Below are positions 4,228-10,655 of a stretch of DNA of 10,655 nucleotides, piece by piece. Each line of letters begins with the position of its first letter. Position 1 is the first letter of the stretch. The translations under genes were made by a program, and so were the position numbers. Under the pieces are notes generated by a model. It worked only from the letters and a program-made list of their open reading frames with translations, ran no database searches and was not told where the DNA came from. Source of the stretch: a virus (lineage: Duplodnaviria > Heunggongvirae > Uroviricota > Caudoviricetes); the IMG/VR virus record IMGVR_UViG_2690316115_000011, positions 1 through 10,655 of that record. One strand, given 5' to 3'.

Positions 4228-4989
4228 TTAGGAATCAAGGTCAGGTAGCATGATTTTCTCAATCAACGTCAATGCCCTTTGGTCTCGTTCAGCAAAATAT
4301 TTAGGAGCGTACTGAGGCAGCCACACTTCGTTGAAGTGTTGTTTGAAATCTGCAAGATATTCGTTTGGGTATAGACGTACCGGGAATGTCCGGCCATCTG
4401 GGTACTCATGGTTATATGTTGGGAATGTCTTCGGCTCAACCCCCCGGTTGTCACGGAGCCATTGCGAGAAAACCCTACCCTCTGAAATATCAGGGACCAT
4501 TTTTTCTGGCAGCGTATATCCGGCCTGTTCAAGTGGCGCAACCAAGTTAAACGTCAGTTCATTAAGCATAGAAAAGTGCGTATGAGGAACTCTGCCTCGG
4601 TTTGTCATATACCGCTTAAGGTGGATAGGGAGTTCGGCAGGCGCTCTTTCACCTGACATCCACTCACGCACCCATCTCGATACTTGCACTGCAAATTTTG
4701 GAGATAGCCACTGAGCTAAATTAATTGCGATGTCTGGATGAACCCAAGTCCCTTGATTCTCTGCTCTTCCGCCTTTAAATGATTGAATTAACTCCGATAT
4801 GGGAATCCCCATATCGCGTGATAATTCATCAAAAAAATCTTGTGTTGTTTTTAGTCGTGTATAGTCAGCAAGTAGCTTCCCCGCAGACTTGCACATCGCG
4901 GTGGCATTGATGTATCCGTCTTTGGTGCGAAGATGGATGACTTCTCCATCAACTTCTCTAGCGATTAATGCAAGTTGAAACTGTGTCAT
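4228..4989 (-). CDS. KilA-N/APSES-like domain protein, 253 aa, with uncharacterised C-terminal half; occupies the rexA-rexB position; candidate exclusion/abortive-infection gene
   Basis: ORF track. Start is 31 nt after the cI stop with SD AGGATGA. Residues ~1-105 show KilA-N/APSES-like motifs (INATAMCKSAGKLLADY ... GGRAENQGTWVHPDIAINLAQWLSPKFAV), comparable from memory to the yeast Mbp1 APSES core. The rest is unrecognised. Confidence 0.75.
   Translation of the reverse strand: MTQFQLALIAREVDGEVIHLRTKDGYINATAMCKSAGKLLADYTRLKTTQDFFDELSRDMGIPISELIQSFKGGRAENQGTWVHPDIAINLAQWLSPKFAVQVSRWVREWMSGERAPAELPIHLKRYMTNRGRVPHTHFSMLNELTFNLVAPLEQAGYTLPEKMVPDISEGRVFSQWLRDNRGVEPKTFPTYNHEYPDGRTFPVRLYPNEYLADFKQHFNEVWLPQYAPKYFAERDQRALTLIEKIMLPDLDS
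4795..4816. repeat. 22-bp near-palindrome cgatatgggaatccccatatcg inside the KilA-N gene (codes DMGIPIS)
   Basis: 9-bp perfect inverted arms CGATATGGG/CCCATATCG. Matches 21 of 22 positions with the palindrome at 10624-10645. Confidence 0.9.
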
Positions 4990-5020
4990 AAATCATCCTA
5001 TTACGTGAAAAATAAAACAA

Positions 5021-5737
<717 letters not shown>

Positions 5738-6723: not shown

Positions 6724-7800
6724 ATGCGTAATTACGCAACAATTTCACCTCAGTTCTGGTTAGGCGATACAGGGCGAAAACTAAGGAAGTCTGGTCCGGA
6801 ATGTATGGTAGTGGCGTTGTATATGATGACCTCGCCTCATTCCAATATGCTGGGCCTTTATTACCTGCCTGTTTTGTACATTGCTCACGAAACCGGACTT
6901 GCTCCTGAAGGGGCTTCTAAGGGGCTTCAAATGGCTTGCGAGGCTGGTTTTTGCAGCTATGACCATGATTCTGAGGTTGTATGGGTGCATGAAATGGCAG
7001 CATGGCAGGTTGGTGAATCGCTGAAACCTGGCGATAACCGTTGTGCTGGGGTAAGAAATGAATATTCCGCGTTGCTGGAAAATCCTTTTTTATCATCCTT
7101 TTATGATAGATATAAGGATGATTTCCACCTGGATGTCAGACGTGAATCATGTCGGAAAATTGAAGCCCCTTCAGAGCCCCTTTCAAGCCAAGAACAGGAA
7201 CAGGAACAGGAAAGGGATAAAACCCTTCTGGTCCATGGCGAAAAAATCGCCACGGACCCACAGGGGGATTTTTGTCCTGTTCTGACTGAACGTCCAGGAC
7301 CAGCTGGCACGACACCGGAAGCAGATTCCGGGCGTTGTGTGCAGCAGGTGCTGATCGTCGAACCGGAGCAACAACGCCAACCGCAGCAGCCTGAAGCCGA
7401 TTCCGCGATGAGCGGGAAGCCGATTGGGTTAACCCGGGCGATGCCGGGACCGTCTGCGGGACGAGTTGATTATCCTGACGTGTTCGAACGGGTCTGGCGT
7501 GAATATCCGCATCGGGCAGGGTCAAACCCGAAGAAATCCGCGTTCAATGCCTGGAGGGCCAGATTACGCGAAGGGGTGTCACCGGATGTCGTGCTGGATG
7601 GCGTGAGGCGTTACGCAAGATACCTGGAGGCTACCGGGAAAGCGGGAACTGAATTTGTTCAGCAGGCATCGACGTTTTTTGGCCCGAACAGGAATTTCGA
7701 AAATCCGTGGTCGCTGCCGAAGGCTGGCGCAGTCAGCCTGCGTTGCGTGAATCACATTTCTGAACCGGACACCGAAATTCCGCCGGGTTTCAGGGGGTAA
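6724..7800 (+). CDS. Replication initiation protein (O-like, non-lambda; YdaU/replisome-organiser-like by position and motifs), 358 aa
   Basis: ORF track. SD GAGGGG before the ATG. Position after cII and directly upstream of the DnaC-like gene. Low-complexity acidic linker SSQEQEQEQE. Family assignment is from memory. Confidence 0.75.
   Translation: MRNYATISPQFWLGDTGRKLRKSGPECMVVALYMMTSPHSNMLGLYYLPVLYIAHETGLAPEGASKGLQMACEAGFCSYDHDSEVVWVHEMAAWQVGESLKPGDNRCAGVRNEYSALLENPFLSSFYDRYKDDFHLDVRRESCRKIEAPSEPLSSQEQEQEQERDKTLLVHGEKIATDPQGDFCPVLTERPGPAGTTPEADSGRCVQQVLIVEPEQQRQPQQPEADSAMSGKPIGLTRAMPGPSAGRVDYPDVFERVWREYPHRAGSNPKKSAFNAWRARLREGVSPDVVLDGVRRYARYLEATGKAGTEFVQQASTFFGPNRNFENPWSLPKAGAVSLRCVNHISEPDTEIPPGFRG
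7373..7456 (+). repeat. Third, diverged copy of the 60-bp repeat inside the O-like gene, containing a short internal duplication of gaagccgatt
   Basis: acgccaaccgcagcagcctgaagccgatt[ccgcgatgagcgggaagccgatt]gggttaacccgggcgatgccgggaccgtctg; the bracketed 23 nt is absent from the upstream copies. Confidence 0.8.
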
Positions 7801-10395: not shown

Positions 10396-10475
10396 ACTGG
10401 CCTGAAGCATTTGCAATTACAGGCGTTGCTATGGCTATCACCTTTTTAGTATATGTTATTTGTCGGTGGGGGTAA
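10392..10475 (+). CDS. Small hydrophobic peptide, 27 aa (MNWPEAFAITGVAMAITFLVYVICRWG), overlapping the upstream stop (ATGA)
   Basis: Found by reading; below the ORF-track size cutoff. One predicted transmembrane helix. No clear SD of its own (possible coupling). Confidence 0.35.
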   Translation: MNWPEAFAITGVAMAITFLVYVICRWG

Positions 10476-10510
10476 AAACGTTCGCCGGGATTAACACCAA
10501 AGGAGGGAAT

Positions 10511-10615
10511 ATGTCGGATGATATATCACTGGCAATGGAAGGTGCGCTGGCTGTTATTGCTGTTGTGGGCGTTTACTGCCTGGTTGTGTTTTTGATGGAT
10601 CGACTAGGGAACTGA
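10511..10615 (+). CDS. Small hydrophobic peptide, 34 aa (MSDDISLAMEGALAVIAVVGVYCLVVFLMDRLGN)
   Basis: Found by reading. SD AAAGGAGGG 4-5 nt before the ATG at 10511. One predicted transmembrane helix. Confidence 0.45.
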   Translation: MSDDISLAMEGALAVIAVVGVYCLVVFLMDRLGN

Positions 10616-10623
10616 ATTCATTA

Positions 10624-10645
10624 CGATATGGGAATTCCCATATCG
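10624..10645. repeat. Perfect 22-bp palindrome cgatatgggaattcccatatcg
   Basis: The two 11-nt halves are exact reverse complements. Differs by one base from the copy at 4795-4816. Confidence 0.9.
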
Positions 10646-10655
10646 GGTAAAAACG

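Follow-up and report, generated by a model that had tools for sequence, protein, structure and literature searches.

Gene remnants and linker sequences at the boundaries of mosaic modules are an established concept in lambdoid phages. Another kind of embedded sequence is represented by Roi of phage HK022, a DNA-binding phage protein that reportedly has an operator site inside its own gene. A third comes from the defence repertoire of prophages. BstA is a prophage-encoded abortive-infection protein that blocks phage DNA replication, and some BstA homologues have only the C-terminal region in common (PMC8585504). A cognate DNA element within the bstA locus, aba, turns BstA off where its own prophage is concerned. 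In phage BTP1, aba is a non-palindromic 63-bp element that extends over the start codon and carries direct CCCGCC repeats at its ends (PMC8585504). Neither 'palindrom' nor 'inverted repeat' occurs in that paper, nor does it report stand-alone (orphan) aba copies in other phages.

Here we describe a 22-bp palindrome at the right edge of a 10,655-nucleotide stretch of DNA from a virus of the Caudoviricetes (the window, hereafter), together with its counterpart inside a KilA-N gene of the same prophage. The best explanation as a whole is that the right edge holds a non-coding vestige of a KilA-N gene, that the palindrome is selected and that it would serve as a DNA recognition site; we put the probability of this combined reading at about 0.5. 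Its component observations, namely the non-coding nature of the right edge, a palindrome shared with KilA-N genes, a position at a module junction and selection on the nucleotides within the gene, are highly probable.

The palindrome resembles aba in several respects. Both are short DNA elements in the coding region of a prophage KilA-N-type defence gene that lies downstream of a repressor gene, both vary with the protein lineage (as cognate pairs in the BTP1 work and as covarying palindrome variants here), and in both cases embedding keeps element and gene linked. The palindrome, at codons 58–65, thus has the aba-type trait of a short DNA element within a bstA locus, but it matches BTP1 aba neither in sequence nor in position: it is a palindrome of 20–28 bp in a canonical KilA-N domain, a domain missing from BTP1 BstA. 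We considered and rejected the idea that it is the published aba, since aba of BTP1 is located at the beginning of bstA, a gene without any such palindrome whose one 7-bp stem, near codon 292, is unrelated. We therefore do not class the palindrome as an aba element; by analogy, an aba-like role in self-immunity may be a candidate function.

The likeness to Roi is that the coding sequence of a DNA-binding phage protein itself contains a palindromic candidate site. The N-terminal domain of Roi differs from that of the KilA-N protein, and the site described here is a candidate drawn from sequence. With the lambdoid linkers it shares a short conserved sequence at the joint between exchangeable modules, polymorphism for presence and absence, and flanking microhomology. 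Unlike them, the junction studied here is a perfect palindrome that is under selection in its parent gene, and the sequence is met again in phage groups unrelated to one another, virulent Dhillonviruses among them. We know of no described parallel for nucleotide covariation of such a degree across phyla.

The right edge of the window

Positions 10624–10645 form a perfect 22-bp palindrome, CGATATGGGAATTCCCATATCG. An inverted-repeat search returned two 11-nt arms that are 100% complementary, with 0 nt between them. Folded as a hairpin, the sequence has a 9-bp stem around an AATT centre, and the DNA hairpin has a computed free energy of −8.6 kcal/mol (z −2.76). The window ends in the order ...ATTA, CGATATGGGAATTCCCATATCG, GGTAAAAACG. 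None of the six frames through the palindrome contains a stop codon. The only other match to the 22-mer in the window at up to three mismatches lies at 4795–4816, on the minus strand inside the KilA-N gene. It agrees at 21 of 22 positions, has GATT as its coding-strand centre and encodes D59-M-G-I-P-I-S65. The chance expectation for such a match was 0 in 200 shuffles of the window; the same held for the 50-kb prophage, which contains two copies of the palindrome.

The first-pass annotation had seen, at this edge, a possible partial gene or gene remnant entering from the right, and had raised the question of whether the region carries two related genes. Its reading of the letters was accurate. 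The minus-strand frame (reverse complement of 10621–10653) does encode FLPDMGIPIS followed by a stop, TAA, complementary to 10621–10623, and the ATG at 10628 on the plus strand does begin MGIPISGKN. The resemblance to the 253-aa KilA-N protein is also real, the matching stretch LSRDMGIPIS being residues 56–65 (given earlier as approximately 55–64).

To follow the two frames beyond the window we used the last 905 bases, at least 80% of which aligned in each of 383 complete Escherichia coli genomes. They were 100% identical to E. coli ML35 and 99.9% identical to O104:H4 outbreak strains. Flanking DNA was taken from the ML35 prophage (locus L001; window position = L001 position + 3750). In this DNA both frames closed at once, as had been proposed as a check on the gene reading. 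The plus-strand frame from ATG 10628 encodes MGIPISGKNGLR and stops after 12 codons. The minus-strand frame spans 17 codons from stop to stop (L001 6874–6924), and its sole start, the ATG of MGIPIS, gives 6 residues. A gene continuing on either strand was therefore rejected, and with it both the partial gene at the right edge and the region with two related genes. The ML35 annotation shows no gene between the window edge and hokD.

Outside the heptapeptide, similarity to the KilA-N gene is confined to about 15 nt of 3' flank, where in-frame stops interrupt the frame (S-stop-stop-IQFP against SELIQSF). We conclude that 10621–10655 is non-coding and that FLPDMGIPIS is a by-product of the palindrome. 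Because the sequence is palindromic, the same heptapeptide is read from both strands, hence an open reading frame on each; and because a 22-bp palindrome is shared, the resemblance to KilA-N is far beyond chance but seated in the DNA. What survives of the gene-remnant idea is a KilA-N vestige of about 37 nt, made up of the 22-mer and about 15 nt of flank; a pseudogene of useful length does not. The palindromic nature of 10624–10645 had been overlooked in the first-pass annotation, and it accounts for the whole of what was noticed there.

A real small gene, either the 12-aa plus-strand product MGIPISGKNGLR or an expressed tail of a KilA-N paralogue on the minus strand, has a negligible probability. 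There is an ATG with an open frame on each strand, including the plus-strand start that had been noted as an alternative without a Shine–Dalgarno sequence. Yet the plus-strand frame has just 12 codons and is unannotated in ML35, the minus-strand frame has 6 codons from its only start, the open reading frame is missing in about half of the homologous hok loci, and both frames follow automatically from the palindrome. A palindrome that encodes one peptide on both strands can thus mimic two related genes, and the gene prediction made here is a false alarm.

The palindrome inside KilA-N genes

The 253-aa gene (4228–4989, minus strand) lies directly downstream of a lambda-type cI gene on the same strand, 5.8 kb to the left of the orphan palindrome in the prophage. 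Residues 13–112 of its product matched the KilA-N family PF04383 (8.2e-27; 93.6 bits against a cutoff of 23.8), the protein matched PHROG 6287 ('BstA abortive infection system'; 1.8e-82), and residues 120–237 matched the PADLOC BstA model (2.5e-20). Alignment with BTP1 BstA gave 29% identity over residues 133–251. The N-terminal halves of the two proteins gave no significant alignment, and the PADLOC match is likewise C-terminal only; a search of solved structures with the KilA-N protein returned just weak similarity to APSES/Mbp1. The bstA gene of BTP1 also lies downstream of the repressor gene. From its predicted C-terminal domain and its location, and not from its N-terminal domain, the 253-aa gene is a BstA-like, putative abortive-infection gene.

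Homologues were collected from viral contigs and from one genome per species. The KilA-N/BstA-like family numbers more than 2,700 proteins. The homologues collected belong to Enterobacterales, Alpha- and Betaproteobacteria, Verrucomicrobiota, Bacillota, Chloroflexota, Bacteroidota, Planctomycetota and others, and the C-terminal domain is kept in 78 of the 80 genomic loci. At the position of D-M-G-I-P-I-S the DNA sequence varies across the homologues and palindromy is kept. The variants include GATATGGGAATTCCCATATC (DMGIPIS), GATGCGGGAATTCCCGCATC (DAGIPAS), GATGTCGGAATTCCGACATC (DVGIPTS), GAAACGGGAATTCCCGTTTC (ETGIPVS), GATATCGGAATTCCGATATC (DIGIPIS), TCTATGGGAATTCCCATAGA (SMGIPID) and GTTATGGGAATTCCCATAAC (VMGIPIT). 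The arms reach 14 bp in some homologues, and the element spans 20–28 bp.

To address this pattern quantitatively, we aligned 89 distinct 51-nt segments, drawn from Proteobacteria, Verrucomicrobiota, Bacillota, Chloroflexota, Bacteroidota and others, and scored ten pairs, with shuffles and with partners slid by 1–3 columns as controls. Standard pairs filled 93.1% of the cells, compared with 78.6 ± 0.7% in shuffles, and 101 cells were changed on both sides, compared with 21 ± 3.7. Compensatory change was seen in 8 of the 10 pairs (6.5 ± 0.9 in shuffles). The covariation score was 0.367, against 0.112 in shuffles and 0.026–0.055 with slid partners; shuffle statistics can be inflated by kinship of the sequences, a concern that the slid controls answer in part.

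Codon usage gave a similar picture. The isoleucine that follows the proline (position x6) is encoded by ATA in 60 of 60 cases, compared with 28% of nearby isoleucine codons. Glycine is encoded by GGA in 81% of the sequences (27% nearby), and proline exclusively by CCC or CCG, so that CCT and CCA account for 0 of 89 codons compared with 53% nearby. The third base of the proline codon complements the third base of codon x2, which precedes the glycine, without exception (G-C in 68, C-G in 21). Because of the compensatory changes and the frozen synonymous sites, these alignments indicate that the intragenic palindrome is kept by selection at the nucleotide level. They also indicate that the residues around the G-I-P turn (M/I, T/V, V/T, I/I, A/A) are set by base complementarity.

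An AlphaFold model of the protein (pLDDT 87.8) places the heptapeptide across the end of a helix at 47–60, a tight turn at G61-I62-P63 and the start of a further helix at 64–67, so the peptide is structured, with x2 and x6 on either side of the turn. Judging from this model, part of the amino acid coupling between x2 and x6 could be structural. Protein structure cannot explain the pattern at synonymous sites.

The element reaches beyond genes with a BstA domain. Complete or nearly complete palindromy is likewise seen at this place in more distant KilA-N genes that lack the domain, from cyanophages PaV-LD and S-SRP02, a Bacteroides phage and an uncultured podovirus. A search of 0.6–1.5 kb around the gene found no second copy of each genome's own palindrome variant. 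Literature searches with the sequence, for KilA-N together with palindrome or inverted repeat, and for work following up BstA found no description of the element. Its significance would lie in a palindrome that is selected even at synonymous sites, across phyla, within the codons of a DNA-binding domain.

Orphan copies and the hok/sok junction

To the left of the orphan palindrome lies a 34-codon open reading frame (10511–10615, plus strand) that encodes a hydrophobic peptide, MSDDISLAMEGALAVIAVVGVYCLVVFLMDRLGN, listed as a hypothetical protein in the ML35 annotation. The two are 8 nt apart and travel as one module in the context of the window (context A). To the right, the next feature is hokD, of a hok/sok type I toxin–antitoxin locus. 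The Rfam model RF01794, which covers the hok leader and the sok region, matched L001 6942–7116 with 116.9 bits (gathering score 59). A hok-type promoter could be read directly: TTGCGG at L001 6908–6913, a 16-nt spacer and TAGAAT at 6930–6935. The putative −35 hexamer starts about 2–3 nt past the end of the window, and 12 nt separate it from the palindrome upstream. Counted from the beginning of the leader model (L001 6942), which we take to be the mRNA start from the known 5' end of hok mRNA, the palindrome lies at approximately −68 to −47.

Comparison of hok loci revealed an 11-bp direct repeat, GGGTAAAAACG, with its first copy at 10470–10480 and its second at 10645–10655 (both plus strand), the latter marking where the hok/sok module begins on the left. 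Between the copies lie 175 bp, comprising the small ORF and the palindrome, that are missing from hok loci such as L202. To survey the junction without bias towards the palindrome, 139 viral hok loci were gathered via the hok promoter. About 55 carry the palindrome intact, 7 have it with a 1-nt deletion, one has a decayed variant and about 70 are without it. Homology to the loci without the palindrome restarts 3–5 nt past it. Where an orphan lies upstream of hok, the gene to its left is one of three, which defines contexts A, B and C. The palindrome thus lies exactly at the joint between the small-ORF module and the hok/sok module. It is the immediate neighbour of hok/sok, but it is outside the Rfam model and missing in about half of the loci with the same promoter. 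We rejected it as a component of hok/sok, given that the Rfam match begins 47 nt downstream and about 70 of the 139 loci lack the palindrome.

The 15 nt that follow the palindrome on the minus strand (10609–10623) overlap the stop of the 34-codon ORF. They read TAATGAATTCAGTTC, compared with GA[AG]TTAATTCAATCA in KilA-N genes, and resemble the 3' flank of the palindrome in those genes at 10 of 15 positions (p about 0.013 by shuffling). The corresponding values were 11 of 15 in context B (p 0.003), 18 of 24 in context C (p below 0.0005) and 17 of 24 in L027 (p below 0.0005). The plus orientation and the other flank showed no similarity to the KilA-N gene. This flank similarity indicates that the hok-linked orphans are vestiges of KilA-N genes, cut at the palindrome on one side, and that the window copy is such a vestige of about 37 nt in minus orientation.

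A scan of viral contigs with the 22-mer returned more than 119 loci. Their surroundings fall into several unrelated types: bstA-like genes, the region upstream of hok, a nin-region cassette and assorted other places. The conserved cassette consists of CCATACAAG, the palindrome, 9 nt and an intrinsic terminator, and it follows at least six different genes. A 24-mer, CCGATATGGGAATTCCCATATCGG, is intergenic in approximately 70–90 virulent Dhillonvirus genomes, just after the helicase/primase gene and amid iteron-like repeats, and about 70 of 159 Dhillonvirus records lack the corresponding 54-nt insert (duplicated flank plus palindrome). Among the Dhillonviruses that carry the copy are rolling, welsh and KarlBarth; EC115, WFI and jat are without it. 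The nin-cassette and Dhillonvirus copies have the palindrome alone in common with the KilA-N gene. Other variants of the palindrome are also orphaned in other viral contigs, among them remnants that are still KilA-N-like.

We also considered that orphan and gene might travel together and rejected this. Twelve hok loci with the palindrome had 7 kb or more of sequence upstream, and none of them held a bstA-like gene. Of 5,426 complete E. coli genomes, 139 have the gene and 633 the 55-nt context-A orphan. This orphan is found at up to four places per E. coli genome. Four Dhillonvirus variant copies carry single uncompensated changes, and within the orphans we saw one suggestive case of compensatory change, a context-C variant. 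To judge from these sequences, the orphans are dispensable and sometimes decaying.

The main rival to a selected recognition site is a neutral recombination scar, a reading that we consider somewhat unlikely. The palindrome would then be fragile: as a hairpin or cruciform it would cause breakage or template switching, KilA-N genes would break there during mosaic exchange, and the orphan would mark a KilA-N gene lost next to hok, with no present function. Such a scar would fit the KilA-N similarity on one flank only, with the other boundary within 3–5 nt of the palindrome edge, as well as the 11-bp direct repeat around the 175-bp insert. It would also fit the finding that presence and absence are both common, the occasional decay of copies and the occurrence of orphans without the gene. 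In the nin cassette and in the Dhillonviruses, however, both boundaries coincide with the palindrome edges and the rest of the gene is gone, although random deletion should rarely leave exactly the palindrome, and do so repeatedly. The diverged context-A copy L037 has all 18 stem bases unchanged and 6 of 27 flanking bases different, and the orphan is found in 633 genomes at 99% identity or more. Nor does a scar explain the selection of the palindrome inside the gene.

A small mobile palindromic element is a weaker rival, and we regard it as highly improbable. Here a 22- to 24-mer would spread alone, in the manner of a mini-MITE or of the Rickettsia-type palindromic elements, which tolerate insertion in frame, and KilA-N genes would be one old insertion site. 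The six stop-free frames agree with this, as do the unrelated contexts (including, for another variant, the inside of long unrelated ORFs), the flanking direct repeats (11 bp in the window, approximately 27–30 bp in the Dhillonviruses) and the up to four places per E. coli genome. Against it, the direct repeats differ in length, unlike the target duplications of transposases, and the repeat in the window encloses 175 bp and not the palindrome alone. The palindrome is ancient and vertically inherited in KilA-N genes, where it diverges along with the gene. An associated transposase was not found, and copy numbers are low.

A candidate DNA site

The selected palindrome could act as DNA or as RNA, and the 89 intragenic sequences bear on the choice. 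G·U accounts for 9 cells, compared with 61 other mispairs and with 13 cells of A·C, the wobble of the opposite strand. The proline codon CCT is absent throughout, although it would leave the protein unchanged and preserve a G·U pair in the RNA. Even in hosts of high G+C content, the centre GGAATTCC hardly varies. Because G·U is rare, CCT is unused and the centre is invariant where a loop could vary, these counts, small as they are, moderately favour selection on double-stranded or cruciform DNA and not on RNA.

We further rejected an intrinsic terminator. The hairpin is followed by GGTAAAAACG on the plus strand and by TAATGAATTC on the minus strand, with no T run on either, and a terminator scan did not call the palindrome hairpin while it did find the hok terminator. 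Other RNA roles would include a 3' stabiliser, processing site or pause site at the end of the small-ORF message, an insulator of hok, or a regulatory structure in KilA-N mRNA. The stem is stable, in the nin region of other lambdoid phages an intrinsic terminator comes 9 nt after the palindrome, within the cassette found behind at least six different genes, and the window palindrome begins 8 nt past a stop codon, all of which would suit a hairpin at the end of a message. The lack of a T run and the negative terminator scan, the near absence of G·U and the avoidance of CCT speak against an RNA hairpin. So does the conservation of the AATT centre and of the GGA and ATT codons, where a loop would be free to vary, and so does the Dhillonvirus copy, whose surroundings past the helicase/primase gene are non-coding and full of iteron-like repeats. 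An RNA role is thus another of the weaker rivals and very unlikely.

For a recognition site in DNA, a possible though tentative mechanism is that a dimeric protein binds the palindrome as double-stranded DNA, or that recognition is of an extruded cruciform. The likeliest recognising protein would be the KilA-N domain, acting as a dimer; this domain is itself encoded in part by the palindrome. With the site inside the gene, mosaic recombination could not separate protein from site, and both would change together. In the case of BstA-like proteins, the palindrome could mark DNA as 'self', analogous to aba. The orphan in the window might then be a second self-mark on the prophage, a decoy in phages without the gene, or a fossil.

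Several observations count against the site reading: the orphans mostly occur without the gene, are dispensable and sometimes decay, BTP1 bstA lacks a palindrome at the corresponding position, and the analogy to aba rests on a different N-terminal domain.

A more specific version of the recognition site, by analogy with aba, would make the palindrome a cognate self-mark and the counterpart of aba, with the orphans in phages lacking the gene acting as counter-defence decoys against the BstA-like protein of a resident prophage. We regard this version as unlikely. The decoy carriers would be lambdoid phages, here with the copy upstream of hok, and about 90 virulent Dhillonviruses, with the copy in an origin-like, iteron-rich region.

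If the palindrome is such a site, it would touch on two questions of BstA defence, namely which DNA is recognised and how self-immunity works outside BTP1, and it offers a concrete candidate for both. Among the Dhillonviruses, 'rolling' carries the orphan and EC115 is without it; the two form a natural pair that bears on escape from defence.

The insert upstream of hok and the adjoining toxin–antitoxin genes

The 22-bp palindrome beside hok/sok (window 10624-10645) lies in a 175-bp insert bracketed by two copies of an 11-bp direct repeat, GGGTAAAAACG (window 10470-10480 and 10645-10655). The insert, which consists of a 34-codon hydrophobic ORF and the palindrome, is missing from many hok loci that are homologous in other respects. 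Together with its flanking repeats, it looks like a module inserted by a microhomology-mediated event. Just past the window end, a Doc-family toxin gene and a RelE/ParE-HTH pair follow at most 1.7 kb after hokD (7111-8860 of L001, the identical prophage DNA of E. coli ML35). The nin region of the prophage therefore stacks three toxin–antitoxin modules.

Terminator cassettes and origin-like repeats

In the nin regions of lambdoid phages, the same palindrome belongs to a conserved cassette roughly 75 nt long (2149-2215 of locus L002 and 27 other viral loci), where CCATACAAG is followed by the palindrome, 9 nt and an intrinsic terminator (GGCCTCTTCGGAGGCC-T run). The cassette stands behind no fewer than six genes that are unrelated to each other; one example site is just upstream of ninB.

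In virulent Dhillonviruses, the palindrome comes after the helicase/primase gene (in Escherichia phage rolling, the region is L377 1990-2260, corresponding to about 15240-15510 of NC_073056.1). Its surroundings are non-coding and dense with CATTGGTTGC and GCGGGACA repeats, and this region resembles an origin. A 54-nt insert comprising the palindrome and a duplicated flank is present in about 89 Dhillonvirus genomes and missing from about 70.

The window itself contains three copies of a 9-bp palindrome, GGGTTAACC, at about 6570, 6660 and 7426 (L121 17502, 17592 and 18358). The repeats that hold them code for peptides resembling QPQQPEADWVNP and lie within a replication-initiator-like gene (6724-7800) and a short way upstream of it; the three copies are possible origin iterons.

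KilA-N genes and other coding copies

The immunity region (window 4228-5734, minus strand) encodes cI and cro, both lambda-type; the slot downstream of cI, the rexAB position, holds a BstA-like gene instead. This gene joins a canonical KilA-N domain to a BstA C-terminal domain, whereas the experimentally tested published BstA homologues have a different, 'KilA-N-like' N-terminal domain.

Three separate KilA-N/BstA-like gene copies occupy distant chromosomal sites in the Thalassobaculaceae MAG OY729512.2 (L224, L226 and L227). Their palindrome-encoded heptapeptides are identical and their palindromes slightly different, one with an outer-arm mismatch. KilA-N genes of the GVMAG giant-virus contigs L383 and L385 and of very large viral contigs (L390-L436; 200-400 kb) likewise have perfect variants of the palindrome at these codons; the feature thus reaches beyond bacterial prophages.

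A further variant, CGATATCGGAATTCCGATATCG, lies in frame within long ORFs of 790-990 aa on viral contigs L391, L401, L414 and L418. These ORFs look unrelated; two of them contain a second GIPVS-coding stretch a few dozen codons downstream of CGATATCGGAATTCCGATATCG.
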